Positions 1 to 59,336 of a stretch of DNA of 64,000 nucleotides are shown here, in pieces. The notes beneath the pieces are model-generated. The model ran no database searches. It saw only the letters and a program-made list of their open reading frames with translations, and was not told the origin of the DNA. Origin of the DNA: Elusimicrobiota bacterium. GTDB taxonomy: Bacteria; CAYTYR01; UBA6262. The position numbers and the translations under genes were made by a program. Each line of letters opens with the position of its first letter. The stretch's first letter is position 1. The DNA is taken from contig PMCA01000017.1 in the NCBI GenBank assembly GCA_003153935.1, positions 72,107 to 136,106 of the forward strand. The letters are read 5' to 3'.

Positions 1-450
1 TACAACCGCATCGGATATAATTTCCGTCTTAGCAACGTCCAGGGAGCTATGGGCGTAAGCCAGATGAAAAAATTAGACTGGATCTTAAAGCAACGGGTCC
101 GCCTGGCGGAAAGATATAACAGGGCTTTTTCCCGCAGCGTGAATATTATCGCGCCGGTACCGGCGGCCGGGGTAGAGCCGAATTACCAAACCTATATGGT
201 AAGGTTGAGCCCGGCCATCAAGATATCCAGGGAGAAAATTATTGCGCGGCTGGCCGCCGCCGGCATTGCCTCCAGGCCGGGAATAATGGCCTGTCACCTG
301 GAGCCGGTATACCGTAAGATTTATCCCAAAATAAATTTGCCGAACACGGAGAGCGCTTACCGTACCGGCCTGATATTGCCGCTGTACGCGGAGATGAAAA
401 TCACCGACCAGGATAAAGTGATCAAAACCTTACAGGATATAACCAGATGA
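1..450 (+). CDS. DegT/DnrJ/EryC1/StrS-family PLP-dependent sugar aminotransferase, C-terminal part (5' end lies outside the window)
   Basis: Frame 1 is open from nt 1 with no stop until 448-450. The translated C-terminus (YNRIGYNFRLSNVQGAMGVSQMKKLD...) matches the conserved C-terminal region of DegT/ArnB-type aminotransferases. Confidence 0.7.
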   Translation, partial: YNRIGYNFRLSNVQGAMGVSQMKKLDWILKQRVRLAERYNRAFSRSVNIIAPVPAAGVEPNYQTYMVRLSPAIKISREKIIARLAAAGIASRPGIMACHLEPVYRKIYPKINLPNTESAYRTGLILPLYAEMKITDQDKVIKTLQDITR

Positions 451-1163
451 AAAACGACGAAATTTTACAGGGCCGGAAGATAGCGGACAAAGCGGAACTG
501 GTCTGGGGCTGGGGCACGCCCTCCGGCCAAAGACGGGCCGACCGGCGCGGTAAATATTTTATCGCTATGGGCCGCATCGGCCCGGGACAGAAGGTCCTGG
601 AGATAGGCTGCGGCACCGGGGTGTTTACCGAGAAGGTAGCCGCTACCGGGGCGGAAATAACCGCCCTGGATATTTCCCCGGAGTTGTTAGACAAAGCCCG
701 GGCCAGGATAAATAGCGACCGCGTTCATTTTTGCCTTGGCAACGCTGAACAAATGGATTTTGGCGCAGAGACCTTTGATGTCGTGATCGGCAGCTCGGTC
801 CTGCATCACCTGCGCCTGCCCTTGATCCTGCCGGAATTAATGAGGGTCTTAAAAAAAGGCGGCCGGCTGGTTTTTGCCGAACCTAACATGCTTAATCCGC
901 AGATTTTCCTGGAGCGAAAAATAAAATTCATCGGCCGGCTCCTGGCCAACACTCCGGAAGAGAGCGCTTTTGTCAGGTGGTCTTTGCTACGGGATTTACG
1001 GCAACAGGGTTTCCGAAACATCTCCGTCAAGCCGTATGATTTTCTGCATCCCTGGACGCCGGCCGCGGCGATAGAGGTGGTGCTGAAATTGGGATCAATA
1101 CTGGAGAATATACCGGGGATTAGGGAAATAGCGGGGTCATTGATCATTTATGCAGAAAAATAA
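447..1163 (+). CDS. class I SAM-dependent methyltransferase
   Basis: Glycine-rich SAM-binding motif LEIGCGTGVFT and a downstream GGRLVF motif. ATGA overlap with the upstream aminotransferase gene suggests translational coupling. Confidence 0.7.
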   Translation: MKNDEILQGRKIADKAELVWGWGTPSGQRRADRRGKYFIAMGRIGPGQKVLEIGCGTGVFTEKVAATGAEITALDISPELLDKARARINSDRVHFCLGNAEQMDFGAETFDVVIGSSVLHHLRLPLILPELMRVLKKGGRLVFAEPNMLNPQIFLERKIKFIGRLLANTPEESAFVRWSLLRDLRQQGFRNISVKPYDFLHPWTPAAAIEVVLKLGSILENIPGIREIAGSLIIYAEK

Positions 1164-2547
1164 TTTCGCCGTAAAAATACTGATCGTCGGTTTGCTGGCG
1201 GTGGTTTTGCGCCTGGGTTTCGCGGTTTATCTGGGTCCGCAATGGGAACCGGACAGCTTCACTTATATGGATGTGTCCAGGGTGCTGGCCAACACCGGCC
1301 ATTTCGCCACCCAGAACCCGGTCAGTGGGCAGCTAACGCCCCAAGCCATGCGGGTACCCTTATTTCATCTGGCGGCCGCCTCCTTGATAAAAGTGTTCGG
1401 CCCCGATGCTGTCCGGCCGGTCATAGCTATGAATATCATATTATCAGTGGCAACGGTCCTGATGACTTTTTATTTATTCTCATTCTTTTTTAATATCAAT
1501 GTCGGTTTCCTGGCCGGACTGCTGATGGCCATAGACCCGAATTCCGTCTATAATAGTATCCTGCTTATGCCGGACACTCTTTTTTCATTTCTTTGCCTGG
1601 CGGCGATCGTGACGGGCGTTTTCGCACTGCGGTCCACGGATTGGAAATGGTATTTCTTCTGGGGCATGGCAATAGGGCTGGCGGCCATGGCCAAGCCGGT
1701 TTTCAAATATTTCTGGCTCGTCGCTCTGATCGTCCTGGTCCTGCAGCATAGTAACTGGAGGTCCTGGTCCCGGTACGGACTGGTTTTACTGCTGGGTTCC
1801 AGCCTGGTCATCGGGCCCTGGCTCATTCGTAACCACCGGATATTTGGTTTCTGGGGATTGGACCTGGCCACGGGCATCGGGAGTATATGGTCCACCACCG
1901 ATCTTATAAAACTTTCAACGGAACAACAACGGCAGGATGATCCTGAGCTGGCTAAGGTCCGGGACGTGGTGGTTCATTCACGGGAAGAGATACGCCAGGT
2001 TCACCCGGAAATGTTCAATGATAAAGATATTTTCGCGCAGTTCAATTACGGAGTGCAGGCCTGGCAGCAGGTCCAGTCGCAGTTGGGGCTATCCTTAGCC
2101 GAAACCGACAGAATGCTGACCAGGTTGGGATTGGAAACGGCTATCCGGAACCCCGGAATTGTCGGTAAACGATTTGCCTTGAATGTGATAAATTTTCTGA
2201 ATTCCCCGGCTTCGCTGGCTGAGCTGGTATGCCGCATTATCCCGGGCGGCAAAGTTTATCGCCAACCCCTGAGCGTGGCCTGGCAGGAGCGTAACTGGAC
2301 GGTAGTGGCGCCGACTATCCTGGTCAGGCTGCTGTACGCGGCGGTGGTTTTTCTCGCCGTCTGGGGCCTGGTTATATACTGGCGCGGGCCGGATCATTAC
2401 GCGGCCTGGCTGATAGCGCTGACCATTTTTTATTTTACTTTCTTTTCTTTTACCGCCGGTTACGACCGCTACCGGTTACCGATCGATCCTTTATTCCTGG
2501 GTCTGGCCGCTTACACCATAACGAGGAAGGTACAAAATGAAATATAA
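1150..2547 (+). CDS. GT-C fold polytopic membrane glycosyltransferase (ArnT/PMT_2-like)
   Basis: 465-aa protein with more than 10 predicted TM helices and periplasmic loops, typical of the ArnT / GT39 / GT83 family. Sits inside an aminotransferase-MTase-GT cluster. Confidence 0.5.
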   Translation: MQKNNFAVKILIVGLLAVVLRLGFAVYLGPQWEPDSFTYMDVSRVLANTGHFATQNPVSGQLTPQAMRVPLFHLAAASLIKVFGPDAVRPVIAMNIILSVATVLMTFYLFSFFFNINVGFLAGLLMAIDPNSVYNSILLMPDTLFSFLCLAAIVTGVFALRSTDWKWYFFWGMAIGLAAMAKPVFKYFWLVALIVLVLQHSNWRSWSRYGLVLLLGSSLVIGPWLIRNHRIFGFWGLDLATGIGSIWSTTDLIKLSTEQQRQDDPELAKVRDVVVHSREEIRQVHPEMFNDKDIFAQFNYGVQAWQQVQSQLGLSLAETDRMLTRLGLETAIRNPGIVGKRFALNVINFLNSPASLAELVCRIIPGGKVYRQPLSVAWQERNWTVVAPTILVRLLYAAVVFLAVWGLVIYWRGPDHYAAWLIALTIFYFTFFSFTAGYDRYRLPIDPLFLGLAAYTITRKVQNEI

Positions 2548-3607
2548 GAACTGTTTACAAGTCGTTACCAGCCTGAATTTCGGCGGCACGGAGCATTTTC
2601 TCTTAAAACTGCTCCGCGGCTTGAAGGACGACTATAATTTTTATGTGGCCTACCTGAAAGAAAGAGGTCCAGTGGCCGACGAGATTGAAAAACTATCCAT
2701 ACCCGTTTTCCAGGTGCACGGCGTGCGGGACCTGACGCATTTCCTGCGGGAACACCCGGTGGATATTGTCCACACCCATTTATACCGCGCCAACATCATC
2801 GGCCGACTGGCAGCCAAGAGGGCGGGGGTGCGTAAAATCATTTCCAGCCAGCGTTCCCTGGACGGCTGGAAGAGTTTTTACCATGTCTGGCTGGACCGCT
2901 GGACGGCGCGTTATGCTAATGTTATCATCGCCAATTCCCAAGCCGCGCGCGATATCCTGGTCTTGCGGGAAAAAATACCGGCGGCCAAGATCAAAGTCGT
3001 CTATAACGGTTTAGACGAGATGCCGGACCTGTCGCGGCCGGAGCTGGTTAGGGTCCTGGGGACTTTACAACTGGATGGTGAATTACCTTTGGTGGGGTGC
3101 ATCACGCGGTTCCACCGCGAAAAAGGCAGCCACTACTTGCCGGAGATCATAAGCCGGGTGGTACGGAAAAAACCGCAGGTGAAATTTATTTTGGTGGGCG
3201 ACGGTCCGTTCCGGGCCAGCCTCGCGGCGGAGATCAAAAAGCGCCGGCTGGAGGAGGCGGTGCGGTTCACCGGTTTCCAGCATGATATCGTTAAATATAT
3301 TTCTTTGCTGGACGTATTCTTTCTGCCGTCGCAGGAAGAGAGTTTCCCGCAGGCGTTACTGGAAGCTTTGGGCGCGGGCGTGCCGTCGGTCTGCACCGAT
3401 GTGGGCGGGGTCCGGGAGATCATCACTCCCGGGGAAACTGGTTTATTGGTCAAGCCTGGTGACCCGGGGGCTATGGCAGACGGTATCCTGTGGCTTCTCG
3501 ACCATAACGAAGAGGCGCAAAAAATGAGCGAACAAGGCAAGAAAGCGGTCAAGCGCAGTTTCCGGCTGGATGATAAGATACGGCAAATAAAAGATATATA
3601 CGGGTGA
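2537..3607 (+). CDS. glycosyltransferase family 4 (GT-B fold)
   Basis: C-terminal EESFPQALLEALGAGVPSVCTDVGG is the classic GT4 E-x7-E / nucleotide-sugar binding motif. Confidence 0.75.
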   Translation: MKYKNCLQVVTSLNFGGTEHFLLKLLRGLKDDYNFYVAYLKERGPVADEIEKLSIPVFQVHGVRDLTHFLREHPVDIVHTHLYRANIIGRLAAKRAGVRKIISSQRSLDGWKSFYHVWLDRWTARYANVIIANSQAARDILVLREKIPAAKIKVVYNGLDEMPDLSRPELVRVLGTLQLDGELPLVGCITRFHREKGSHYLPEIISRVVRKKPQVKFILVGDGPFRASLAAEIKKRRLEEAVRFTGFQHDIVKYISLLDVFFLPSQEESFPQALLEALGAGVPSVCTDVGGVREIITPGETGLLVKPGDPGAMADGILWLLDHNEEAQKMSEQGKKAVKRSFRLDDKIRQIKDIYG

Positions 3608-3611
3608 TGAG

Positions 3612-4667
3612 ATGCTGTTAGCTGCTTTGTTAGTGATCGTATTGCTGGTCCTGTTCCTGCCGGTAACCTGGCCGGTAGTGGAAAAGAACCTGGAAATATT
3701 CCTGATGGTAATGGGTATAATGGCAGTATCATTATCCGATTCCCTGGGCCCGGAAAGAATGTGGACGGCGCAATTGCTGGTGGAAGCCATGAAAGAACCG
3801 GTTAAGATAACTTTGGCGGTGATCGTGGTGGGGTTGCTGGTTCATTTCTTTAACAAGCAGTTGACCCGGGCCATAGCCCGGACCGAAAAAGTGCTGGGGG
3901 AACGCTGGTTTGGCGTGGTCCTTATAATTGTCCTGGGTATTCTCTCCAGCGTCATTACAGCTATCATGGCCGCGTTGATACTGTGTGAAGTGGTCCTGGT
4001 ATTGAATTATAAAAGAAAATTTGAGATCATCCTGGTGGTGCTGGGTTGTTTTTCCATCGGGTTGGGAGCGGCTCTTACGCCCCTCGGGGAACCGCTGTCA
4101 ACGATATTTATTTCCAAGCTGAAGGGGCCTCCTTATAACGCCGGGTTCTTTTTCCTGGTACAGAATTACGGCTATTATTTGATCGGCGGGGTCTTGGCGG
4201 TGGGGTTGACCAGCCTTTTCTTCAAGCCGGAACGGTTCTCCCGCGACGGCAGCCTGGCGCCGCTCAAGGAAGAACTTAACTTGAAGCATGTTTTCCTGCG
4301 GGGCGTCAAGGTATATATCTTTATCGCCGCGCTGGTTTTCCTGGGTACCGGCATGAAACCGGTGATCGAGCAGTACGTGGTAAAACTTCCGGCCGCGGCC
4401 CTGTACTGGATCAATTCAATTTCCGCCATAGTGGACAACGCCACTTTAACTTCTGCGGAGATCGGTCCCCTCCTGAATATCCAGCAGTTGCACATGGCGC
4501 TAATGGGATTATTGATCTCCGGAGGCATGTTGATCCCTGGCAATATCCCCAATATTATTTCCGCCAGCCGTCTTAAGATCGGCAGCAAAGAATGGGCCCG
4601 CTTCGGCGTGCCTTACGGTGCCGCGCTGATGGTGATCTTCTTCCTGGTGCTCTGGCTGGCTGCCTGA
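3612..4667 (+). CDS. polytopic inner-membrane protein of unknown function (possibly DUF1646-like transporter)
   Basis: 351 aa with 8 or more hydrophobic segments and no catalytic motif recognised. Last gene of the glycan cluster. Confidence 0.4.
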   Translation: MLLAALLVIVLLVLFLPVTWPVVEKNLEIFLMVMGIMAVSLSDSLGPERMWTAQLLVEAMKEPVKITLAVIVVGLLVHFFNKQLTRAIARTEKVLGERWFGVVLIIVLGILSSVITAIMAALILCEVVLVLNYKRKFEIILVVLGCFSIGLGAALTPLGEPLSTIFISKLKGPPYNAGFFFLVQNYGYYLIGGVLAVGLTSLFFKPERFSRDGSLAPLKEELNLKHVFLRGVKVYIFIAALVFLGTGMKPVIEQYVVKLPAAALYWINSISAIVDNATLTSAEIGPLLNIQQLHMALMGLLISGGMLIPGNIPNIISASRLKIGSKEWARFGVPYGAALMVIFFLVLWLAA

Positions 4668-4681
4668 AAGAGCAAAACTTA

Positions 4682-4710
4682 TTGACAACCCGCGAAAATG
4701 GTGTTATTGT
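4682..4710 (+). promoter_or_regulatory. candidate sigma70-type promoter for the PilZ pair (TTGACA-17nt-TATTGT)
   Basis: TTGACA at 4682-4687 and TATTGT at 4705-4710 with a 17-nt spacer, about 27 nt upstream of the PilZ start. Confidence 0.4.
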
Positions 4711-4736
4711 ATTGTTGAATCCAAACAGAGGCAATT

Positions 4737-5084
4737 ATGGCCACGGTAAACTTGGACAAGAGACAATATCCACGCTTTAATACGGTTGTATCCTTACAAT
4801 ACAGCGCGTTGACTAAATATAATTATTTAACCAAGATAAAGAGATCTTTAACCCAGAATATCAGTGAAGGCGGGATTAGTTTTTCCACCGGGGATTATAT
4901 CCGGGAACTTTCCCCGCTTAATCTGCTTATATCCTTGCACGATAGCCCTTTGAAGGCCGAAGGGCAGGTTGTCTGGACCCGGAAATTAAAGAACAGAAAA
5001 ATTGAAACTTACCAGGTGGGAGTGAAATTTACTAATATAGATCCCTATAGCCGGGCCAAGATCGCCAAGCTGGAGTGGTCATGA
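4737..5084 (+). CDS. PilZ-domain protein (c-di-GMP receptor), paralog 1
   Basis: RxxxR motif (RQYPR) and N-x-S-x-G-G motif (NISEGG). Single-domain protein of about 115 aa. Confidence 0.75.
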   Translation: MATVNLDKRQYPRFNTVVSLQYSALTKYNYLTKIKRSLTQNISEGGISFSTGDYIRELSPLNLLISLHDSPLKAEGQVVWTRKLKNRKIETYQVGVKFTNIDPYSRAKIAKLEWS

Positions 5085-5425
5085 ACATCGACAAGCCGCC
5101 GGAAAAAAGAACAGGCACCCGCTTTAACGTTAGTCTGGCACTGCAATACCGGTACCTGACCAAACTGAACAACGCGCTGAGCCGGGATGTAAGCGAGGGT
5201 GGGCTTAGTTTCACTACCTCGGACTTTATTCCCCTGAATACGCAGTTGTTCGTAGCACTTTTGCCTAAAGATGAACCGCTGCGAGCTACCGGCCAGGTGG
5301 TTTGGGTGCGCAAGGTGCCGTACGGTGACCGGTATAACGTGGGGCTGAAATTCACCGATATCAGCGCCTATAATAAAGCCAGGATTTCCACCCTGGAAGA
5401 CAGGGTCTTAAGGGATAATTTTTAG
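5081..5425 (+). CDS. PilZ-domain protein (c-di-GMP receptor), paralog 2
   Basis: RxxxR (RTGTR) and DVSEGG motifs. The ATG at 5081 overlaps the upstream TGA (ATGA coupling). Clearly paralogous to the upstream PilZ (shared QVVW.RK...G.KFT.I motif). Confidence 0.75.
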   Translation: MNIDKPPEKRTGTRFNVSLALQYRYLTKLNNALSRDVSEGGLSFTTSDFIPLNTQLFVALLPKDEPLRATGQVVWVRKVPYGDRYNVGLKFTDISAYNKARISTLEDRVLRDNF

Positions 5426-5451
5426 TCAGAGAAGCGGTGATGTGATCTAAG

Positions 5452-5482
5452 TCCCGAACTGAATGTCCGGGATTATTTTTTT
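5452..5482 (+). terminator. rho-independent terminator after the PilZ pair
   Basis: GC-rich hairpin TCCCG...CGGGA followed by TTATTTTTTT. Confidence 0.6.
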
Positions 5483-5492
5483 GTGAGGTGTT

Positions 5493-6767
5493 ATGCGTAT
5501 AAGCGAATCCTTTATACCGACCATGAAAGAAATCCCCAGTGAGGCCCAGATCCCCAGCCACCAGCTGATGCTGCGGGCGGGCATGATCCGCAAGCTGGCT
5601 AGCGGTGTTTATACTTTCCTGCCCCTTGGCTACCGGGTTTTAAAGAATGTGGAACAGGTTATACGCGAAGAGATGAACGCTGCCGGGGCTCAGGAATTGC
5701 TGTTGCCGACTCTGCATCCGCGCGAGCTCTGGGAAGAAACCGGGCGCTGGGGCCTATATGGCGACGAAATGCTGAAAGTGACCGACCGCAATAAGCGGGA
5801 GTTCGGTCTGGGTCCTACCCATGAGGAAGTGATCACCGACCTGGTCAGGCGCGAAGTACGTTCTTACCGGCAGCTGCCGGTTATCCTCTACCAGTTCCAG
5901 ACCAAATTCCGGGATGAGATCCGGCCCCGGTTCGGGGTCATGCGCGGCCGCGAATTCATCATGAAAGACTGCTACAGTTTTGACCGCGATGAGAAGGGTC
6001 TGGAGATCAATTACCAGAAAATGGTGCAGGCCTATAAAAATATTTTTACCCGCTGCGGGTTCAAGTTCAAGGTGGTGCAGGCCGATTCCGGCAATATCGG
6101 CGGATCACTCTCACATGAGTTCATGGTACTGGCGGATACCGGCGAAGAAGCACTGTACTATTGCGAAGCCTGCGACCACTGCCAGAAAGCCAAAGAAGAG
6201 GACGATAATTCGCAAGCGGGGCGCGAGAAGCTCTCCTGTCCCAAGTGTAATAAGGAAATGACCTATACCCGGGTGATAGAGGTAGGGCACACTTTTAACC
6301 TTGGTACTAAATACAGCGCGGCCATGAAAGCCACTTTCCTGGATGAAAAAGGCGAAGCCCAGCCCTTTATCATGGGTTGTTACGGTATCGGCGTTTCACG
6401 TATCGTAGCGGCGAGTATCGAGCAAAGCCATGACGCCAACGGCATTATCTGGCCGTTGTCTATCGCTCCCTTTAAGGTCATGCTGCTGCCGTTGGATGTT
6501 TCCAATGAACAGGTTAAGGTAACGGCGGAGAAGCTGCATCAGGATCTGCAGGCCCAGGGTGTGACCGTGTTACTGGATGACCGAGATGAAAGAGCCGGCG
6601 TTAAGTTCAAGGACGCTGATCTGCTGGGAATACCGATCAAAGTGATAATTTCCACCAGGAACATGGCGGAAAATAAGATCGAGATCAAGCTGCGGTCAAA
6701 AAACGATGCCATTAAAGTCGATCTGCCGGAGACCTTAAGTAAGATCATGGCCATGGTTAAAGCTTAA
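5493..6767 (+). CDS. proS: prolyl-tRNA synthetase, bacterial-type but lacking the INS editing domain
   Basis: N-terminus HQLMLRAGMIRKLASGVYTFLPLGYRVLKNVEQVIREEM is the bacterial ProRS signature, with class II motifs and an anticodon-binding C-terminus. Only 424 aa, and a Cys-rich 37-aa segment sits where INS normally is. Confidence 0.85.
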   Translation: MRISESFIPTMKEIPSEAQIPSHQLMLRAGMIRKLASGVYTFLPLGYRVLKNVEQVIREEMNAAGAQELLLPTLHPRELWEETGRWGLYGDEMLKVTDRNKREFGLGPTHEEVITDLVRREVRSYRQLPVILYQFQTKFRDEIRPRFGVMRGREFIMKDCYSFDRDEKGLEINYQKMVQAYKNIFTRCGFKFKVVQADSGNIGGSLSHEFMVLADTGEEALYYCEACDHCQKAKEEDDNSQAGREKLSCPKCNKEMTYTRVIEVGHTFNLGTKYSAAMKATFLDEKGEAQPFIMGCYGIGVSRIVAASIEQSHDANGIIWPLSIAPFKVMLLPLDVSNEQVKVTAEKLHQDLQAQGVTVLLDDRDERAGVKFKDADLLGIPIKVIISTRNMAENKIEIKLRSKNDAIKVDLPETLSKIMAMVKA

Positions 6768-6816
6768 AAAAAGCTTGCATTTTATTTGCCGGTGTGATAA
6801 AAGTAGTTAACCAACT

Positions 6817-6846
6817 AAGAGTGGGGAAATCCCACTCTTTTTGTTT
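6817..6846 (+). terminator. rho-independent terminator after proS
   Basis: AAGAGTGGG-GAAAT-CCCACTCTT hairpin followed by a T-run. Confidence 0.75.
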
Positions 6847-6878
6847 ACTCCGATAAATTATCTTTTTAGGCAGGAGTT

Positions 6879-7373
6879 ATGTCCGAATTTGAAGAGCTGG
6901 AAAAAATGATATCCTCCGCGATCGGCGGACTGGGCTTGAAGCTCTACCAGTACTCTTTTACCGGTCACGTCGTTCGTGTCGTAGTCGATAATGACAACGG
7001 CAACGTCAGCGTAGAGGACTGCGCGGCAGCCAGCCGGGCTGTAGAGAAGCTGTTCGATGAGCGCAATTTCAGCGCGCATAATTACACCCTGGAAGTATCA
7101 TCGCCGGGGCTGGAACGGCCTCTGGTAACCCGGGAAGATTACGCCCGGTGCCTGGGTAAGAAAGCCAGACTCATCGTTAACGAGGACAATAAGCAGCTGG
7201 CGGTCATGGGCTGGATAAAGACGGTTACTGACGCCGGAGTGGAATTAGAATTTAAGAGCCAGGAAATTAAGTTCTATCCGTTTGACCATATTATTAGCGG
7301 AAAACTTGAAGTAGATTTTAACAGGAGGAAGAAGGATGACAAGCGAATTAATGGATACACTGGAACAAATTGA
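6879..7373 (+). CDS. rimP: ribosome maturation factor RimP
   Basis: RimP-like sequence (SSPGLERPL motif) and conserved position immediately upstream of nusA. Confidence 0.8.
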   Translation: MSEFEELEKMISSAIGGLGLKLYQYSFTGHVVRVVVDNDNGNVSVEDCAAASRAVEKLFDERNFSAHNYTLEVSSPGLERPLVTREDYARCLGKKARLIVNEDNKQLAVMGWIKTVTDAGVELEFKSQEIKFYPFDHIISGKLEVDFNRRKKDDKRINGYTGTN

Positions 7374-8646
7374 AAGAGAAAAAAATATCAAAACCGATGA
7401 ATTGATAAAAATGGTGGAAGCCGCCTTGTTGGCGGCCCTGCGCAAGCATTTGCATTCCAGCCAGAACCTGGAAGTTTCCATTAACCGGGAAACCGGCTTG
7501 ATCGAAGCCTACCAGACCAAAAAAGTGTCTGAGGAAGTGCGGCGCAGCGATATAGAGATCTCCCAGGCGGACGCCCAGAAAATAAAACCCAAGGCCAAGA
7601 TAGGCGACGACGTAAAGATCAGCCTGGAAACCAGGGATTTTGGCCGGATTGCGGCGCAGACCGCCAAGCAGGTCATTATCCAGCGGTTGTTGGAAACAGA
7701 AAGAGAGAATCTTTTCCAGGAATATAAAGCCAAGGAGATGGAGCTGGTGAATGGCACCGTCCAGCGGGTCAGCCCCAAGGGCGTGATCATCGACCTGGGC
7801 AAGATCGAAGCCCACCTGCCGCAGCGGGAACAGATCAAGGGCGAATCTTATCATGCCGGTGAAAGAATAAAAGTACTGATCCTGAAAGTCGCCAAGACGA
7901 CCAAGGGACCGCAGGTAATAGTGTCAAGGACCCATCCCAGCCTGGTCAAGCGCCTGTTCGAGCTGGAAGTCCCGGAAGTATATGAAAAAATAGTGGAGAT
8001 CAAGAATGTGGTCAGGGAACCGGGCCAGCGGGCCAAGATCGCGGTGGCCAGCAATAACGATAAAGTCGACCCGGTCGGCGCCTGCGTGGGCGTTAAAGGC
8101 TCCCGCATCCGCACCATCATAGATGAGCTCAAGGGCGAAAGGATCGACGTTATAATTTTCGATAACGACCAGGCTAACTTCATAGGCAAGGCGCTTTCAC
8201 CGGCCAAGGTGGAAAGCGTGAACCTGGATTCCACCGGTAAAAAGGCGGAAGTTATCGTTCCCGACGATCAGCTGTCTTTGGCCATCGGCAAAGCCGGCCA
8301 AAATGTAAGACTGGCCGCCAAGCTTACCGGCTGGCATATAGATATCAAGAGCCACTCCGATAAGAAAGCCCTGGCCGAGCAGAGCATCGCGCAGGCTACG
8401 GCTGACGCCGCCGCGACGGCCGCATCCGAAGCCGAGGCCGGAGAAACCGCGCCGGCAGAAGGTTCCTCCCTGACGCAATTGCCTTCAGTGGGAGAGAAAC
8501 TGCAAACCGAGCTTATAGCCAAGGGGTTCGATTCACTGGAGAAAATAGCAGCAGCCTCGGTCGAGGAACTGACGCAGGTGCCGGGCATCGGCGAGAAGAA
8601 AGCGGAAAAGATCCAGGCCGCGGCCAAAGAATTAACCGGTAAATAA
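7336..8646 (+). CDS. nusA: transcription termination/antitermination factor NusA
   Basis: N-terminal domain, S1, two KH domains and a C-terminal HhH repeat (LPSVGEKLQTELI..., VPGIGEKKAEKI). The start may be the internal ATG at 7351. Confidence 0.9.
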   Translation: MTSELMDTLEQIEREKNIKTDELIKMVEAALLAALRKHLHSSQNLEVSINRETGLIEAYQTKKVSEEVRRSDIEISQADAQKIKPKAKIGDDVKISLETRDFGRIAAQTAKQVIIQRLLETERENLFQEYKAKEMELVNGTVQRVSPKGVIIDLGKIEAHLPQREQIKGESYHAGERIKVLILKVAKTTKGPQVIVSRTHPSLVKRLFELEVPEVYEKIVEIKNVVREPGQRAKIAVASNNDKVDPVGACVGVKGSRIRTIIDELKGERIDVIIFDNDQANFIGKALSPAKVESVNLDSTGKKAEVIVPDDQLSLAIGKAGQNVRLAAKLTGWHIDIKSHSDKKALAEQSIAQATADAAATAASEAEAGETAPAEGSSLTQLPSVGEKLQTELIAKGFDSLEKIAAASVEELTQVPGIGEKKAEKIQAAAKELTGK

Positions 8647-8681
8647 ATAAAATATAGAACGTACCCATTAAGGGGGCAGTT

Positions 8682-10877
8682 ATGGTAAAAAAAGCAGAAA
8701 AAAAAGATGATGATATTAAAAAGAAACCCAAGGCGAAGCCGGTAAAAAAGAGCGAGACCGCGGCCAAACCGGAAAAGAAAGCTAAAGCGGCGGTGGCTAA
8801 ACCCAAAGAGACCAAGAAACCCAAAAAAGCCGCTAAACCCGCAATCGCGGAGACAGTGCCTGCAACTATAACCCCGGTGGAAAAAAAGCCGGCCAAACCC
8901 AGAGCCAAAAAAGAAGCGACTAAAGCGGAGCCCGTTGTTTTTAAAGAACCAAAGATCGCCGCCAAAGTCGAACCAAAACCGGCGCCTAAAATAGAACCTA
9001 AGCCCCAGCCCATAGCGGAAGTTAAACCAGCCCCAGTGGTAAAACCGCCTGTAACCGCAGCGGTGGAACATCCCAAGGCAGCAGCACCGACGCCGCTACC
9101 CCGTGAAAAAATTAAAATATCCCAGATCGTTACCGTAAGCGAATTAGCGGAAAAATTAAAGATAAAACCGGGAGAACTCATAAAGAAACTGATGCAGATC
9201 AAGATCCTGGCCACCATCAACCAGCGCTTGGATCCCGCTACCGTTTCCCTGATCGCGGAAGATTACAATTTTGAGGCGGAGATAGTTCCTCTGTATGGCG
9301 ATGAGATCCTGGCCAAGGAAGAAGAAAAAGATAACCCGGCCGACCTGGTTTCGCGTCCGCCCGTTGTGACCATCATGGGTCATGTGGACCATGGCAAGAC
9401 CTCACTCCTGGATGCTATTCGGGAAACCAATGTGGCCGGTGGGGAAGCCGGAGGCATTACCCAGCATATCGGCGCCTATAAGGTCAGGCTGCCCAAAGGG
9501 GAAGTAGTTTTCCTCGATACGCCAGGCCATGAGGCTTTCACCGCGATGCGCGCGCGCGGCGCGCAGGCGACGGATATAGTGGTGCTGGTAGTAGCGGCCG
9601 ATGACGGGGTTATGCCTCAGACCGTGGAAGCTATCAATCATGCCAAAGCTGCCGGAGTGCCAATTGTGGTGGCGGTAAATAAGATGGACCTGCCGGGCGC
9701 CAACGTGCAGAGGATCAAGCAGGAGTTAGCCGGTTACGACCTGGCCAGTGAAGACTGGGGCGGCAAGACTATTTTCGTCGAAGTCTCCGCCAGGAATAAG
9801 ACCGGCCTGGAGAAACTGCTGGAAATGATCCTGCTGGAAGCGGAAATGATGGAGCTGAAAGCCAATCCTAAGACCAGGGCCAAAGGCGTGGTCGTGGAAG
9901 CCAAGCTGGATCGCGGCCGCGGGCCGGTGGCCACCTTGCTGGTGCAAAAAGGGACCTTGCGTCCCGGCGAAGTTTTTGTGGCGGGGCAGATGTACGGCAA
10001 AGTGCGGGCCATGCTTGATGATAAACTGCAAAAAGTGGAGGCCGCGGGGCCGGCTACGCCGGTGGAGGTCCTGGGTTTAAGCGGCTTGCCGCAGGCCGGG
10101 GACAATTTCCAGGTAGTCGCGGATGAACGGGAAGGCCGCCATATATCTGGCATGCGTCAGGAGATCAAGAGAATCGAAGAATTAACCCTGGGCAAACACA
10201 AGATCAGCCTGGATGAATTATACCAGCAGATCAAGGACGGCAAGATAAAAGAACTTAAAGTGATCATCAAAGCGGACGTACAAGGCTCGGCGGAGGCGCT
10301 GAAGGAATCCCTGTACAAATTATCCAACAAAGAGATCAAGATCAACGTGATCCATAGCGGTATCGGTGGCATAACGGAAAGCGATGTGATCCTGGCCAGT
10401 ATTTCCAACGCCATCATCATCGGGTTTAACGTCCGGCCGCAGGCGGCTGTTGAAGCGCTGGTAGAGAAAGAGAAAGTGGATATGCGTCTCTACCGCATTA
10501 TCTATGAAGTGATCGATGACGTCAAGAAAGCCCTGGAAGGCATGCTCGAACCGGAGTTCAAAGAGGTACGCCTGGGACGGGCGGAAGTCAGACAGGTGTT
10601 CAAACTGCCCAAAGGCGGTTTTATTGGCGGCAGTTATGTTCTGGACGGCCAGATCACCCGCACCGCTAATGTGCGGCTGGTCAGGGATAACGTAGTGATA
10701 TTCGAAGGCAAGCTGGCTTCCCTGCGCCGTTTCAAAGATGATGTTAAGGAAGTGGCCACTGGCTTCGAGTGCGGTATAGGCCTGGAAAATTTCAATGACC
10801 TGAAAGTTAGCGATATTATCGAGGCCTACAAACTGGATAGGGTGGCTCGCACCCTGGAACAGGCCAACCAGACGTAA
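8682..10877 (+). CDS. infB: translation initiation factor IF-2
   Basis: K/A/P-rich low-complexity N-terminus, then a G-domain ([21 protein letters not shown]) and the IF-2 C-terminal domains. Confidence 0.95.
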
Positions 10878-52644: not shown

Positions 52645-55470
52645 ATGCGCAAAGCCGTACTGATCTTCATTATACTTGGGATTATTATGGCCGGCGCCGC
52701 ATCCGTCCAGGCGCAGGGTTTTGGCCAGAATAAAGTTATCGTCAGGGATTTCCCCTGGCAAGTCATCGAGACGCCGCATTTCCGCGTCTATTATTATCTC
52801 CAGGACCAGGCTCAGGTAGAGAAAGTGGTCCGTATCCTGGAGAACGGTTACCAGCGCATCAGTCGCGACCTGAACGTGGAACCGGAAGAAAAAATACCCT
52901 TTGTCCTATTTGACACGCACAACGAGTTTGAGCAGAATAATATCGGTGACGTGGGGGAAGGGGTGGGGGGCTTTACCGAACTCTTCAAAAACCGCTTCGT
53001 CGTTCCCCTGGAAAGCAGCGAGAAGGAACTCACCCATGTGATCGAGCACGAAATGACTCACGCCCTGACCTTCGAGCTCTTTTACGGCGGACATTTCTGG
53101 CGTTCAATCTACTTGGTAAAAAGCATATTTTACCCGCTCTGGTTCATGGAGGGCCTGGCCGAATACGAATCAGCGCCCTACGATATTACCGACGAAATGC
53201 TCCTGCGCGACGCCATTATCAACAACGGCCTGATCCCCCTGCACAAGTTACTAAGTTTCAGCCATCTGCAATCCAACCAGGTGGTGCTGGCCTATAAAGA
53301 AGGACAGAGCGCCTTGCGTTACGTGGCGGATAGGTACGGCTCGCAAAAAGTCGTAGATATCCTCTACCTGATGAAGGATTCTTACGAAGTTTCCGGCGTG
53401 CTTAATACTGCCCTGAAGAAAGATATTTTCAAGTTCGACAAGGAGTGGGAAGCCTACCTGAGAACCAAATATGGGAAACAGGTGGAAGGCAAAAAGAAGG
53501 TCACCGACTACGGCCGCCAGGTCACCGATCTGGGCTACACTAATTCCCGCGGCCAGTTCTCGCCCGACGGCAAGAATATTATCTTCCTGTCCGATCGCCG
53601 TAAATTCTACGAGTTGTATATCTCTCGCAGCGATGGGTCGGAGCCACAGCCGCTGTTGGGCTGGTTCGACCGCCGCAAGTTTGACGTCATCAATCCTGCA
53701 AACAATACCTTCTCATTTTCCCGTGATTCCCAGAATATAGTTTTTGTGGCGGAGCGCCTGCAAAAGGATTACTTGTACGTATTTAACCTGCCAAGCCACC
53801 GGTTGAAAAGGATCAAAGTTAACCTGGATTCTTTGGTCTCCCCGGGTTTCTCGCCGGATGGCCGGCAGATCATTTTCAGCGGCGTAAAAGACGGTGTCAG
53901 CGACCTGTATTTGATAGACTTGGACGGCCGCAATTTGCAGAAAATTACTGACGATCCCTATGATGATTCCTATGCGGTATTTTCACCCGATGGCACCCAG
54001 ATCGCTTATGTCAGCGAGCGGGATAAAGTCAGGCACATTTATTTGATGGACTGGCCTAGCCGGGCAACCCGCCGTTTGACCCAGGACGAGCCCGAAGAGA
54101 TCGCGCCGGACTTTACCGGACCGGGGTCAACCATCTCGTACATCGCCGCGGGTGGCGGGATATATAACCTTTACCAATACGATCCGGCGTCGGGACAAAA
54201 AAGGCAGCTTACCGACGTTAATACCGGCATTTTGCACGCTAGTATATCGCCAATCTCGGGTGATTGGCTATTAAGCGGTTATAACGCGGGTTTGACTAAT
54301 CTTTTCCTCCAATCGCACCCTACAGTCAGCGCCCCGATACAGGCCATGGACCAATCCTCTTACTCCGTGATCACCAGTTCCATGACCATCACCGTCAGCT
54401 CTACCACCGTGCCGACCGCCGATCTGATCCTGAAAAAATATAAATATCGTTTAACCGGGTCCACCGACTATTTCTTGCCTTTATTCATGGTCTATGCGGG
54501 GTCGGAAGGGGCCGGGGTGGCGGGCGCATTTTACTGGCAGTTCAGCGATATGCTGGGTAATCACACCCTGGCCACCGCTGCCACCTATTCCAGCGACGAC
54601 AATTATCTTAACTACGGAGCCAGTTACACCTACGCCCGCTGGCGGCCGCAATTCTCTTTCAGCGCGGGCGGGGCCACTGGTTATCAACTGAATAGCGACG
54701 GTGAATTGGAGCGCGTCCGGCAGTACCAGGAGAGCTTTTTTGTTACTTACCCTTTGGACCGTTATCACCGCCTGGAAACCGGGCTGGCTAACGTAGATGA
54801 AATGATCCGCAACCGTGACCGGAATAATATAACCAAACATGACCGCGCTAATGAAGTTTTCGCCTCGTTCACCCGCGATTACACCAGCGGTGAATTATTT
54901 GATATTAATGACGGTCATCGTCTAAGTTTATCGGCCACTTTGGGCCGGAATCTGTTCGGCGGCGACGAGAAATATGATACCTACCAATTTGACTGGCAGA
55001 CATACTGGACCTACTGGGAGCGCAACGTGATCCTGGCGACACGCCTGATCGGGGTTGATTCCAATGGCCGTGATTTCCAGGAGTTTAGCCTGGGTAACCG
55101 CGATAACTTACGCGGCTATAGCGACGACGATTACCTGAATGGCCGGATCATCGGTCTGGGCAACCTGGAAACCAGGTTTTATTTGTTTCGCAATATAGAT
55201 TATGACGTCTGGTTCATGTTGCCTGACCTTTATTTTAAGAGCCTGCAATTCGCGGTTTTTACCGACAATGGCCTGGTCGGAAGTTCCTGGACCGGGTTCG
55301 CTGATCAGGCGAAAAGCGCCCGCAATTTGCGTAATAGCATCGGCGCCGGTTTCCGCCTGAATTCCTTGATCCAGCAGCAATTCGCCCTGATCCTCAGGCT
55401 CGATTACGCTAAACGCACCGACGTACAGTCAGACGGCGTCTGGTACTTTAATTTAGGCGCCAGTTTCTAG
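52645..55470 (+). CDS. large outer-membrane protein: signal peptide - gluzincin-like (HExxH ... EGLAEY) domain - TolB-like PD40 beta-propeller - C-terminal Omp85-superfamily beta-barrel
   Basis: HEMTHAL ... WFMEGLAEYES (Peptidase_MA-like). Repeated FSPDG...Y motifs (four or more PD40 blades). C-terminal barrel with the Omp85 L6-loop motif NLRGY and a terminal ...NLGASF (aromatic last residue). Confidence 0.6.
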   Translation: MRKAVLIFIILGIIMAGAASVQAQGFGQNKVIVRDFPWQVIETPHFRVYYYLQDQAQVEKVVRILENGYQRISRDLNVEPEEKIPFVLFDTHNEFEQNNIGDVGEGVGGFTELFKNRFVVPLESSEKELTHVIEHEMTHALTFELFYGGHFWRSIYLVKSIFYPLWFMEGLAEYESAPYDITDEMLLRDAIINNGLIPLHKLLSFSHLQSNQVVLAYKEGQSALRYVADRYGSQKVVDILYLMKDSYEVSGVLNTALKKDIFKFDKEWEAYLRTKYGKQVEGKKKVTDYGRQVTDLGYTNSRGQFSPDGKNIIFLSDRRKFYELYISRSDGSEPQPLLGWFDRRKFDVINPANNTFSFSRDSQNIVFVAERLQKDYLYVFNLPSHRLKRIKVNLDSLVSPGFSPDGRQIIFSGVKDGVSDLYLIDLDGRNLQKITDDPYDDSYAVFSPDGTQIAYVSERDKVRHIYLMDWPSRATRRLTQDEPEEIAPDFTGPGSTISYIAAGGGIYNLYQYDPASGQKRQLTDVNTGILHASISPISGDWLLSGYNAGLTNLFLQSHPTVSAPIQAMDQSSYSVITSSMTITVSSTTVPTADLILKKYKYRLTGSTDYFLPLFMVYAGSEGAGVAGAFYWQFSDMLGNHTLATAATYSSDDNYLNYGASYTYARWRPQFSFSAGGATGYQLNSDGELERVRQYQESFFVTYPLDRYHRLETGLANVDEMIRNRDRNNITKHDRANEVFASFTRDYTSGELFDINDGHRLSLSATLGRNLFGGDEKYDTYQFDWQTYWTYWERNVILATRLIGVDSNGRDFQEFSLGNRDNLRGYSDDDYLNGRIIGLGNLETRFYLFRNIDYDVWFMLPDLYFKSLQFAVFTDNGLVGSSWTGFADQAKSARNLRNSIGAGFRLNSLIQQQFALILRLDYAKRTDVQSDGVWYFNLGASF

Positions 55471-55498
55471 ATACAGCAGTTGTAAATTCAAATTTGAG

Positions 55499-55536
55499 TA
55501 GGGGAAGGGGGTAGCAATGTCCCCTTCTTTTTTATT
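55499..55536 (+). terminator. rho-independent terminator after the 941-aa OMP gene
   Basis: GGGGAAGGGGG-loop-CCCCTTC followed by TTTTTTATT. Confidence 0.75.
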
Positions 55537-55826
55537 AGCCATTTTTCTCTGCTTTAGCAGTTTTTAACCCATCTTTTACCAGGCTTGGTTCCCTTTGTGT
55601 GCCAGTCTCCGCTGGTTAGCTTTTTCATGCCCGTTTCCTGTCCTTTTTCTTGCCTGCCTTAAATTCTTCCAAAAATTATAGATTGAATTATGTTTACTTT
55701 GGGTATTTTCGGGCTAGTTTGTTCCTGCCGGCCTGGCTTGGACCCATCTGACCTGGTTTAGATCGCTGTTTTCTCGTCGAGAAAGGGCGCAAAAAGGCGA
55801 TTTTAGGCCCTTAAAATTATCCGGCA

Positions 55827-55910
55827 GGGGTTTGGTATCCCGGCTTTTTGGGGTTTTGGGGTTGGTTGGCCGGGATCCGGGTTTTGGTCCGGGTTTGGGA
55901 TCTGGGTTTT
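55827..55910. repeat. G-tract/T-tract microsatellite-like block (T4G4-type repeats; potential G-quadruplex on + strand)
   Basis: GGGGTTTGG...TTTTTGGGGTTTTGGGGTTGGTTGG...GGGTTTTGG..GGGTTTGGG..TGGGTTTT, seen directly. It lies inside an approximately 0.7-kb ORF-free convergent gap. Confidence 0.5.
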
Positions 55911-56250
55911 AACAGGCCAGGCTACCGACCGGCTTATCCGGGAATGGAAAACCCGCGGCCAAGGCCGGGACATTGGCTGTCTGGAGCGCCAAAAAATAAA
56001 ACTGGTAAATAATTATAAATTAAATAAATATTTTGCGACAGATATAGGGGATTTAAAAATAATCTCAGATATTACTTTAACTAGCCGCTAAAGAGCAGGC
56101 TAAGGCAATAGTTAACATAATATATCTTATCAGACGTTGCACAGAAGGCAATAAAAGGGTCTGTCTTAAGGGTTGAGGTGTCTATTTCAGGCATAATTTG
56201 AGGTATTCTTGTGGTGATCAAAGCGGCTCTATGGCGGTTTTATACGATTC

Positions 56251-58464
56251 TTAAACTTCCCAATAGTCTAAAATGAAGTCTTCACCGGGGACTTTAAATG
56301 ATATCAACCCATGATTGGGCCAGCGTTCTATCTCGAAGTTGTTTCTTTTAACCAGCATTATCATACTTACTTCGTCATTTGCCTTCAAATTAAGCAGGGA
56401 AAAGGGTATGGACAGCTCAATGAATTTGCTTATAGCTACGGTCTTAAGCTCCCCCACCTTGTTCTGGGAGTTTTCCAGGATCTCATAGACCATTAGGGCT
56501 TTTTCCGACTGAGTACTAAGGTTTAGGGTAATGTTATAGGGTTTGGGGTCTAAAATCGTAAATTCAAGCGTCAGGTCATCGGTTTCAGCTGTATTCAGGA
56601 TCGGGTTCAGGTCCAAACGCAGGTAAAGGTTAGCCAGGTCGAAACCATAATATATCAGATTCACTATGGTATTGGCGCGATACATGGTACCGCCAGTTTT
56701 GGAAACGTCGTAAACTCCGGAGTTCTGCCATTCATAGTAATCGGTATTTTTACCGTCAAGAGTCGGATGAATAAGGTTAAGCGGGTATTGCACCGGCTTG
56801 GATTTGGCGATGCCTTTGATCGCCACGTACAGCCAATCCGGTACTTTTTCACCGATAAGCTTGTATACGTTCATCAGGTGCTGGCGGAAAAGAACGTCGA
56901 ATTCCTCGTCGTTGGCGCTGGAGTGGTCATCGCCGTACCACCAGTTCCAGTCGCTGCCTTCGGCAATGTAGATCTCTTCCCAGGCCTGTTCCAGGATCTT
57001 GGCAAATTCTGGCTGCTGATGTCCCTGGGAGAACTTCTGCAGAGTGTCACGGGTCTTACCCAGGAACTCCCAGGCCGTGTTATCTTCAGTGTGTCCTATC
57101 CAGACGCCGAAATTATGGTTTATCCAGCTGCCGGCGAAAAGATTGAACAGGTTATACTGCGGCGTGTTATTCTGCAAGTATTCGTTGACGGTCACGCATT
57201 TGAAATTGGGATCGTTGGAGAGCTCGCGATAGATAGATTTTAAGAAAGTCTCGCCATCGTTGGGATAAAATTCCCAGGCGTTTTCTCCGTCGAGGATTAT
57301 GCTCAAAAGATGCGGCCCGGGCATCAGGTTGACGTTATCGCGGATATGGCGCAGGGTGGCCATGAAGTTATTTACGGCGTCCCCGTTGGTCATGTGAGAA
57401 TATGTGAAACCGATCAGGTCCGAGAGGGTTTTATCCCGGAAGACCATGTCGATCTCTTTATCCTGGTTTTTTACCCGGTAGGCCTTATAGAGCGCGTCGC
57501 TGTGAATGTCGTTGGTAGTGAAATCCTTACGGATGACAATTTTAAGAGTGTTAGCCAGAATATCCTCATCGGTGGCGATCCATTTAATGCCGGCGTCCAC
57601 CATGATGGGAATTATCTCTTCGCTGACGCTGCCTTCCGATGGCCACATTCCGTTGGGTTTACGGCCGAAGCAGCGTTCATAATATTCTATCGCTTTTTGT
57701 ACCTGTTTCCGGGCATCTTCCGGATGCCGGAACGGCTTCTTGGGCAGGATGATCTCCGGCGTAGCCACCCGGGCAGAGTCGGTGTTGCAGATCAGGGGCA
57801 GTATGGGATGATAGAAAGGAGTCGTGGTGACCTCGATCTGTCCCCTATCCTGCATCTCTTTATATTTAGGGATAACCAGGGCCATTATCTCCCGGTGTTT
57901 CTGGATTATGTATTGCTTGTCTTCTTCAGTGAAATTGCGGCCCTTGGCGGAAATATCCTGCAGTTTATTATCCTTATGGCGCCAGTACGGATCGATCCAG
58001 ACCAGATTGAACAGGACCTGGAGATCCAGGTAATCCTGGGGGTTGAAATATTTTTTGATCCGCCGTAATTCCTGGACGTTGGTATAATGCCCCCTTTTAT
58101 CCAGCAGTTCGGCGTAACGGGGATAGGAATATACCATTGTGCCCCAGTTGGCCATGAAAAAATTGGCCAGGATAAAATCCTTATCGAGTTCGGTTAGCTG
58201 GTTGGCCGGGATCAGGGTCTTATCGAGAAATTCGTCGCTGGCGTTATTCTTGACATAATCCTCGATCTGTACCAGCAGCGATGGAACGAGGTTGAAGGTT
58301 TGGTGGATCTGCGGGAATTCATCCAGGATAGCGGCCATGTCGTAATAATCTTTGGTGCAGTGCAGCCGCACCCAGGGCAGTGAGTATTTTCCCGTCAGGT
58401 CGTTCTTGTAATACGGCTGGTGCATATGCCAGAGAAAAGCTACATGGAGCGGTCTGTTTTCCAT
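56251..58464 (-). CDS. glycoside hydrolase family 57 protein (alpha-glucan-active; long form with C-terminal extension)
   Basis: N-terminus LHVAFLWHMHQPYY is the GH57 signature, followed by a conserved catalytic region, in a 737-aa protein. Confidence 0.85.
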   Translation of the reverse strand: MENRPLHVAFLWHMHQPYYKNDLTGKYSLPWVRLHCTKDYYDMAAILDEFPQIHQTFNLVPSLLVQIEDYVKNNASDEFLDKTLIPANQLTELDKDFILANFFMANWGTMVYSYPRYAELLDKRGHYTNVQELRRIKKYFNPQDYLDLQVLFNLVWIDPYWRHKDNKLQDISAKGRNFTEEDKQYIIQKHREIMALVIPKYKEMQDRGQIEVTTTPFYHPILPLICNTDSARVATPEIILPKKPFRHPEDARKQVQKAIEYYERCFGRKPNGMWPSEGSVSEEIIPIMVDAGIKWIATDEDILANTLKIVIRKDFTTNDIHSDALYKAYRVKNQDKEIDMVFRDKTLSDLIGFTYSHMTNGDAVNNFMATLRHIRDNVNLMPGPHLLSIILDGENAWEFYPNDGETFLKSIYRELSNDPNFKCVTVNEYLQNNTPQYNLFNLFAGSWINHNFGVWIGHTEDNTAWEFLGKTRDTLQKFSQGHQQPEFAKILEQAWEEIYIAEGSDWNWWYGDDHSSANDEEFDVLFRQHLMNVYKLIGEKVPDWLYVAIKGIAKSKPVQYPLNLIHPTLDGKNTDYYEWQNSGVYDVSKTGGTMYRANTIVNLIYYGFDLANLYLRLDLNPILNTAETDDLTLEFTILDPKPYNITLNLSTQSEKALMVYEILENSQNKVGELKTVAISKFIELSIPFSLLNLKANDEVSMIMLVKRNNFEIERWPNHGLISFKVPGEDFILDYWEV

Positions 58465-59262: not shown

Positions 59263-59336
59263 CGCCCCCGACAGGAGTCGAACCTGTGATCATCGGTTTA
59301 GGAAACCGCCGCACTATCCAACTGTGCTACGGGGGC
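59263..59336 (-). tRNA. tRNA-Arg (anticodon CCU)
   Basis: The reverse complement folds as a cloverleaf. Acceptor GCCCCCG/CGGGGGC, D-stem GCAC/GTGC, anticodon loop UUCCUAA, T-arm ACAGG-TTCGACT-CCTGT, discriminator G. 3'-CCA not encoded. Confidence 0.85.

Follow-up and report, generated by a model that had tools for sequence, protein, structure and literature searches.

A Predicted POTRA-Free Omp85 Protein with an N-Terminal Zinc-Peptidase Domain and a TolB-Like Propeller, Encoded Next to rpsA in an Elusimicrobiota Genome

Outer-membrane biogenesis is driven universally by Omp85 proteins, whose mechanism is known almost entirely from the POTRA-bearing BamA, TamA, TpsB, Sam50 and Toc75. The gene described here, which together with its product is called X, occupies positions 52645..55470 (+) of a 64-kb window (the whole stretch of DNA that was analysed) from an Elusimicrobiota-like metagenome-assembled genome (MAG), and it encodes a peptidase-propeller-Omp85 protein. 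The closest described system is found in the survey of Heinz and Lithgow in 2014, who distinguished ten bacterial Omp85/TpsB subfamilies, including a POTRA-free "WD40-like Omp85" with a TolB-like propeller (PMC4104836). In that survey the superfamily is defined by the barrel alone, and subfamilies without POTRA are included. Its domain table lists PF07676 repeats and PF01103 for the WD40-like Omp85, while Table S3 gives for the members TolB plus aminopeptidase/collagenase-like structure hits (1z5h, 4kxd, 4ar1). The main text deals with the propeller only, viewed as a "BamA-BamB fusion", and does not discuss an invariant zinc site. Later papers on the WD40-like Omp85 mention "WD40 and peptidase domains" and refer to such subfamilies as "not well characterized... 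intriguing targets".

X displays the features of this subfamily: a PD40/TolB propeller N-terminal to the barrel, the lack of POTRA, and an extra gluzincin/aminopeptidase-like region at the N-terminus. Since X fits the WD40-like Omp85 of Heinz and Lithgow, its architecture was already known, and the novelty ascribed to it in a first-pass annotation, made from the sequence of the window, had been overestimated (PMC4104836). X and the proteins catalogued there are of the same kind and come from overlapping phyla (Caldithrix, Cloacimonas, Rhodothermus and others); X itself comes from an Elusimicrobiota-like MAG, and its barrel has diverged too far to be recognised by the Pfam Omp85 family. The M9/M30-like assignment of the peptidase, the invariance of its zinc site and its standing as the most conserved domain were not found in the main text of PMC4104836 or in the literature searched, and neither were the Elusimicrobiota rpsA operon and the recurrent TamB, MlaE and LpxH-like neighbourhoods of X. 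A functional study was likewise not found in the literature searched on Omp85 with PD40, PF13485, PDB entry 9CCG, or Elusimicrobia with BamA.

Domains of X

It is nearly certain that X consists of a signal peptide, a zinc peptidase, a TolB-like propeller, a tether and an Omp85 barrel, in that order and without POTRA (Table 1). The AlphaFold2 model, for which an alignment of 77 sequences of full-length relatives was used as input, is confident, with a predicted local distance difference test score (pLDDT) of 88.1 and a predicted template-modelling score (pTM) of 0.88. From the N-terminus it presents a signal helix, an alpha/beta peptidase (residues ~27-285), a propeller of ~24 strands (~296-556), a disordered segment (557-590) and a 16-strand barrel (605-937). 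The N-terminal helix is followed by a low-pLDDT stretch at residues 12-24; the signal peptide has no lipobox Cys and would be cleaved between VQA and QG. A protein identical to X is recorded on the NCBI MAG contig PMDN01000046.1 (assembly GCA_003154495.1). Its closest named relatives, at ~60% identity, are Elusimicrobia MAG proteins labelled "PD40 domain-containing protein" or "peptidase MA family metallohydrolase", and remoter ones carry the annotation "BamA/TamA family outer membrane protein".

Most of what the first-pass annotation had read from the open reading frame (ORF) holds. The coordinates of the gene are correct, and all the motifs quoted are present, namely HEMTH (residues 135-139), WFMEGLAEYES (166-176), three FSPDG repeats, NLRGY (821-825) and the C-terminal LGASF. 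The call of a POTRA-free Omp85-type barrel joined to a gluzincin-like HExxH...E domain and a TolB-like propeller is borne out by the Pfam and NCBIfam matches, the model and the profiles. Pfam and structure-model checks had been proposed for this call: the former recovered Peptidase_MA_2 and PD40 in X and did not call the Omp85 family, and the latter yielded a barrel of 16 strands in the Omp85 arrangement.

Table 1. Features of X and its immediate surroundings; positions are those of the window.
Feature	Residues	Position	Strand	Remarks
rpsA (ribosomal protein S1)	554 residues	50972..52636	+	S1 domains; upstream gene of the X operon
X, complete ORF	941 residues plus stop codon	52645..55470	+	
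Sec signal peptide	1-23	52645..52713	+	Read from sequence: MRK, hydrophobic core, VQA/QG
Gluzincin (clan MA) zinc-peptidase domain, M9/M30-like	~27-285	52723..53499	+	
HEMTH (H135, E136, H139), zinc-binding/catalytic HExxH	135-139	53047..53061	+	Active-site helix 126-147 in the model
WFMEGLAEYES	166-176	53140..53172	+	Helix 165-176 in the model ("glutamate helix")
Six-bladed TolB/PD40-type beta-propeller	~296-556	53530..54312	+	
Ser/Thr-rich flexible tether	557-596	54313..54432	+	pLDDT <50 at 562-587; regular secondary structure absent
16-stranded Omp85 (BamA/TamA-type) outer-membrane beta-barrel	597-941	54433..55467	+	Ends in the beta-signal ...YFNLGASF
L6-loop LRGY, Omp85 lid-lock	822-825	55108..55119	+	Long loop between beta11 and beta12
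FTDNG, inner-wall (F/G)xDxG	872-876	55258..55272	+	beta13, strand 862-879
Terminator-like GC-rich hairpin and U-tract		55500..55540	+	30 nucleotides past the X stop codon

The peptidase domain is matched by Pfam Peptidase_MA_2 (residues 163-273, E = 5.6e-11) and by NCBIfam flagellinolysin (E = 6e-8), and it displays the features of the gluzincin clan MA(E), with HExxH on an active-site helix, a downstream Glu and a thermolysin-like fold. The HExxH motif is invariant in all 77 aligned relatives and kept in each of the 117 full-length top homologues. In the second motif W166, E169 and G170 are invariant among the 77 relatives, and E173 is conserved in more than 90% of them; by analogy with other gluzincins, E169, located 29 residues past H139, is presumed to be the third zinc ligand. 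Because HExxH and E169 are kept across the 77 relatives and the 117 full-length homologues and the peptidase is the best-conserved domain of X, the zinc site is likely to be catalytically complete and X to be an active enzyme. At E ≤ 1e-30, the peptidase domain alone gathers 406 clusters (50%-identity representatives). It stands at the N-terminus of proteins of 895-1200 residues in 111 of the best 150 of these clusters, so this type of peptidase mostly occurs in an X-like architecture.

The M9 collagenases, the M30 enzymes hyicolysin and lugdulysin, and flagellinolysin share only 12-17% sequence identity with X. Unlike the M9/M30 gluzincins, X lacks activator, PKD and collagen-binding domains and carries a propeller and a membrane barrel in the same chain. 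M1 aminopeptidases are characterized by a GxMEN exopeptidase motif and an HExxH-x18-E spacing. An M1 assignment was rejected for X, given its H139-E169 spacing of 29, the absence of GxMEN (the conserved edge strand reads GVGGFTE) and the lower scores of M1 structures compared with those of M9/M30. Single-sequence searches against PDB sequences gave nothing useful, either with the N-terminal domain or with the barrel (residues 580-941), and family profiles were required. As a side observation, a TARA marine contig (L005, positions 4704-7787) carries a tandem paralogue upstream of an intact X, with propeller and barrel kept and RELTR in the place where HExxH should stand, which suggests that the paralogue may serve as a pseudo-peptidase partner.

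The propeller is recognized through its PD40 repeats (Pfam, E = 7e-20), and precomputed Pfam matches to Tricorn_N, Tricorn_2nd and DPPIV_N fall on it. NCBIfam TolB also matches (E = 5e-37), with 127.8 bits against a TIGR02800 cut-off of 343.15 and over model positions 171-364 only, which represent the propeller part. With this score, and in the absence of the N-terminal alpha/beta domain of TolB, X was rejected as a TolB orthologue. Tricorn protease and the S9 peptidases (DPP-IV, acylaminoacyl peptidase) share with X the combination of a PD40-type propeller and a peptidase; nevertheless, they are soluble serine peptidases whose propeller is N-terminal to the catalytic domain, whereas X has its metallopeptidase ahead of the propeller. 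The propeller of tricorn and S9 peptidases acts as a gate for substrates.

Between propeller and barrel lies a tether that shows 10% identity to the relatives and zero conserved columns, and the equivalent segment ranges from 53 to 154 residues among them. POTRA was found neither in X, by Pfam or in the model, nor as a Pfam family among the 120 listed homologues. The absence noted in the first-pass annotation also holds for cryptic POTRA-like folds, as the connector at residues 557-590 is disordered (pLDDT <50).

For the barrel, the NCBIfam BamA model (TIGR03303) gives a weak match at residues 691-909 (E = 9.7e-6), which scores 24.2 bits where the cut-off is 297.15. With a score so far under the equivalog threshold and without POTRA domains, of which BamA has five, X differs from BamA, TamA and Sam50, and identity as a BamA equivalog was discarded. 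PF01103 (Omp85) gives no match in X and is matched by the barrels of 12 of 17 relatives (best E = 5e-22), and many X homologues carry it as a precomputed match. Since this family misses X but catches its relatives, the Omp85 membership of X rests on transitive and profile homology. In profile comparison the barrel falls in with BamA and TamA and apart from TpsB; a TpsB (type Vb) identity was rejected on this ground, and because the two POTRAs, the plug helix and a TpsA partner gene are absent. The lid-lock LRGY, which fits the L6 pattern (V/I/L)RG(Y/F), aligns with the BamA VRGF in a profile alignment (R823 invariant, G824 in 74 of 77 relatives), FTDNG aligns with the BamA FWDMG (F872 in 75, D874 in 77 and G876 in 76 of 77), and the C-terminal Gly-x-x-Phe is also conserved and aligned with BamA. 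In the model, L6 lies between strands 11 and 12 and FTDNG on strand 13, which is the canonical Omp85 layout. From the conservation and BamA alignment of RGY, FxDxG and Gly-x-x-Phe, X would appear to retain the functional Omp85 core.

Gene order and distribution

X stands last in a conserved housekeeping operon, cmk-plsC-ispH-rpsA-X. Its ATG lies 8 nucleotides past the rpsA stop codon, and the order (aroA)-cmk-plsC-(ispH)-rpsA-X was found in 23 independent related loci, with identities as low as 30%. The rpsA-X gap measures 1-80 nucleotides in 13 of the 23 and ~0.9-1.1 kb in the other 10, where it holds a secreted TPR protein. This insertion occurs in one subclade and encodes a protein of ~290-330 residues with an N-terminal hydrophobic segment (L004 7017-8000, L024 4231-5106 and ~8 more Elusimicrobiota). 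The inserted protein, which is reminiscent of BamD or of the TPR module in BepA, is absent from the operon of the window itself. A sigma-70 promoter scan of the region returned 12 sites against 8.2 ± 2.9 expected, thus no enrichment, and zero sites in the 8-nucleotide gap.

The first-pass annotation had considered X monocistronic, with its own terminator and situated right after rpsA. The adjacency is correct, but the short gap and the recurrence of the rpsA-X order in 23 related loci argue against a monocistronic gene. As for the terminator, a terminator-like hairpin is seen downstream of X, and RNA folding predicts a stem of ~13 bp with CUUUUUUAUU after it. The consensus terminator scanner missed it and the z-score of the 75-nucleotide segment is only -1.5, so the hairpin is only suggestive of a terminator.

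In a distribution scan with one genome per species, relatives of X were detected in at least 583 genomes. Carriers among the matches listed belong to the Elusimicrobiota, Ignavibacteria, Bacteroidota, Zixibacteria, Marinimicrobia, Calditrichota, Eisenbacteria, Cloacimonadota, Latescibacterota and others. The taxonomic survey that had been proposed for this domain order thus gave at least 583 species genomes, with the POTRA Pfam family in 0 of 120 listed homologues.

Outside the Elusimicrobiota, X is accompanied by different genes, but envelope genes recur among them. On the chromosome CP070702.1 of a Ca. Eiseniibacteriota (L030, positions 66-8934), BamA, TamB and an X homologue are arranged head to tail with a 13-nucleotide gap between TamB and X. 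This BamA reaches 296.7 bits with TIGR03303 though truncated, the TamB has 1308 residues (Pfam TamB, 5.6e-40), and the set looks, as far as gene order tells, like a BamA-TamB-X operon. Because a canonical BamA coexists with X there, X would be an accessory factor in this genome and not the insertase. In the window, a canonical bamA was not found, and the barrel hidden Markov model matches X alone. A TamB-like gene lies upstream of X in nine loci, including the one just described. In eight loci of Ignavibacteria/Bacteroidota (L063 9-3626 and seven others), a protein of ~1200 residues is followed by RNase R and then by X; this protein has no Pfam match and a weak NCBIfam TamB match (1.7e-9). MlaE is found directly 3' of X in nine loci (L069 8993-9763 and eight others), and in Calditrichota the MlaE permease starts 8 nucleotides after X. 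In Marinimicrobia, an LpxH-like gene is located divergently upstream of X in 21 loci (L050 5089-5838 and 20 others), and its product, a phosphoesterase, has an NCBIfam match to UDP-2,3-diacylglucosamine diphosphatase (1e-27) that is under the cut-off. The Marinimicrobia loci also have a HEAT-repeat protein nearby, and radA and an ORF of ~377 residues, probably tgt judging from its sequence, downstream. Taken together, the BamA-TamB, MlaE and LpxH-like neighbours are only suggestive of a link to outer-membrane homeostasis.

Cellular location and proposed function of X

In the model, L6 joins strands 11 and 12, so that the odd-numbered strands run from the periplasm to the outside and beta1 starts in the periplasm. 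The tether would therefore leave the barrel on the periplasmic side, and the peptidase-propeller module probably stays in the periplasm, as indicated by strand parity and by the analogy with PlpD. PlpD, a patatin-like Omp85 formerly assigned to "type Vd secretion", stands alone among Omp85 proteins with a fused enzyme in having been tested by experiment, and the enzyme domain of PlpD is periplasmic despite earlier claims of secretion (PMC11116518). Like X, it combines an Omp85 barrel with an N-terminal enzyme once presumed to be secreted, which makes it the best experimental analogue for the topology of X; unlike X, PlpD keeps one POTRA, carries a phospholipase instead of a protease and a propeller, and forms homodimers.

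The best explanation of X as a whole, which we hold with moderate confidence, is that of a periplasmic zinc endopeptidase which is anchored in the outer membrane and serves the quality control of the envelope. After Sec export, the BamA/TamA-type barrel of 16 strands would be seated in the outer membrane, and the ~40-residue tether leaving its periplasmic end would hold the propeller and the M9/M30-like zinc endopeptidase. The anchored protease would then act on envelope proteins that are unfolded or stalled, degrading or processing them on the inner side of the outer membrane. A platform for substrate binding or gating would be provided by the propeller, as in tricorn and S9 peptidases, while the Omp85 barrel would hold the enzyme in place and might also contact substrates. 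In the source lineage, X would be expressed constitutively as the final gene of the cmk-plsC-ispH-rpsA operon. Proteolytic activity itself, like the class of substrates, is predicted from the sequence, and the narrower assignment to quality control or processing of envelope and outer-membrane proteins is a tentative one, drawn by analogy.

X would thus be a covalent counterpart of BepA docked on BAM. In two reports (PMC8423444, PMC13655028), BepA is described as a zinc protease of the periplasm, with an HExxH motif, that works at an Omp85 machine in the quality control of outer-membrane proteins. The presumed functional analogy lies in the HExxH protease at an Omp85 machine and in the secreted TPR protein that ~10 Elusimicrobiota loci encode between rpsA and X. 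The two proteins differ in that BepA belongs to family M48, carries TPR and is a separate soluble protein, whereas X is M9/M30-like and fused to the barrel.

Several points weigh against the endopeptidase proposal. The coexistence of BamA and X is established for one genome only, that of the Ca. Eiseniibacteriota. The neighbourhood links vary by lineage and are only suggestive, and cmk-rpsA is a general housekeeping cluster. In addition, a tether of ~40 residues or more could thread the barrel lumen, which would allow surface exposure, and the conservation of the lid-lock motifs suggests a role of the barrel beyond anchoring, as would suit an assembly factor equally well. The literature searched also yielded zero localisation or activity data for any family member.

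Such an assembly-factor role is the first alternative to consider. In line with the "BamA-BamB fusion" of Heinz and Lithgow, X would then work as a BamA/TamA-like insertase or translocation-assembly module in which the propeller replaces POTRA/BamB, possibly together with TamB, and the peptidase trims or proofreads clients. The conserved Omp85 lid-lock motifs are as compatible with this role as with the endopeptidase proposal. However, X lacks POTRA, which in known machines binds substrates, BamB-E and TamB; its best-conserved domain is the peptidase and not the barrel; the canonical BamA in the same Ca. Eiseniibacteriota operon makes X redundant as an insertase there; and most lineages do not have the TamB link. 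This alternative is accordingly regarded as unlikely. The first-pass annotation had also offered a Bam/Tam-like factor whose periplasmic module for handling substrates is unusual. The BamA/TamA-type barrel is supported and such a factor stays viable as an alternative, whereas the secretion half of that reading is not supported.

A bolder and similarly doubtful version combines the barrel and the protease into a self-contained outer-membrane "degradase", in which the lateral seam of the barrel would capture stalled or misassembled beta-barrels or TamB-delivered clients and the propeller would feed them to the zinc endopeptidase. If true, X would be a covalent BamA-BepA-like quality-control machine, core to the envelopes of the Elusimicrobiota and the FCB group. 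In a stronger variant, some lineages, perhaps with the source MAG among them, may use X instead of a POTRA-bearing Omp85.

Self-translocation is less probable still. In this type V-like, single-chain two-partner scheme, which had been part of the first-pass annotation as a barrel displaying or translocating its own cargo, the barrel would export the protease-propeller module to the surface for nutrition or environmental interaction. The tether length mentioned above would permit some exposure, but the barrel groups with BamA/TamA and not with TpsB, and a two-partner secretion partner, POTRA and the plug helix are absent. Strand parity in the model places the N-terminus of beta1 in the periplasm, and the matching claim for PlpD was overturned by experiment (PMC11116518). 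Moreover, across the Elusimicrobiota X is conserved by vertical descent within a housekeeping operon, unlike horizontally transferred secreted factors, and no precedent is known for passing a ~530-residue module, folded propeller included, through the lumen of a 16-strand barrel that L6 closes. Both the position of beta1 and the precedent of PlpD speak against the claim of cargo display.

Finally, a Tol-Pal-like tether, with the propeller binding Pal or another peptidoglycan-associated lipoprotein to link the outer membrane to the wall and the peptidase acting on peptidoglycan-linked proteins or peptides, is highly improbable: TolB is the nearest match of the propeller and a TolB-Pal-BamA connection was noted by Heinz and Lithgow (PMC4104836), but the score is 127.8 against 343 bits for the TolB equivalog, the TolB N-terminal domain is absent, tol/pal genes occur in 0 of 85 neighbourhoods examined, and PD40 propellers are common in peptidases unconnected with Tol-Pal.

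Returning to the endopeptidase proposal, its interest derives from the fact that in the WD40-like Omp85 an invariant zinc protease and a propeller stand in the place of POTRA, in at least 583 species genomes of Elusimicrobiota and FCB-group phyla and in housekeeping or envelope-biogenesis operons. Identifying the substrate and the membrane side of X would tell whether proteolytic quality control, rather than insertion or secretion, can be the task of an Omp85 barrel, and a characterised X would give several phyla that are poorly cultivated one more conserved component of the envelope. For the source genome, the annotation of X can be corrected to that of a WD40-like Omp85 member, predicted to be co-transcribed with rpsA.

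The remainder of the window

The large ORFs of the window include infB, pnp, ftsK, an acrB-like gene and others. Downstream of X, a convergent gap of 780 nucleotides (55471-56250) separates it from a convergent GH57 glycoside hydrolase gene. At 56115-56137, 3' of both genes, the gap holds a 23-nucleotide block, ACATAATATATCTTATCAGACGT, which is identical in three relatives of ~60% identity (L006, L007 and L008), with a box reading ATAAAGGGGA ~55 nucleotides upstream of it. An Rfam match, a conserved RNA structure or a convincing small ORF was not found in the region of the block, which may be bound by a protein or may be the promoter or 5' end of a small gene that is missing from the annotation. 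The same gap contains short G/T-rich tandem repeats at 55846-55910, consisting of 2.2 copies of TTTTGGGG and three copies of GGATCCGGGTTTT. The GH57 gene (56251-58464, minus strand) is an intact ORF of 737 residues. In the NCBI record with the identical X (L001 13607-15726), it is called as two genes of 207 and 467 residues, with 98% identity over the compared part, and behind this split lies a frameshift or else a difference in assembly or strain. The sole Rfam match at the gathering threshold in the window is one tRNA at 59263-59336, on the minus strand.

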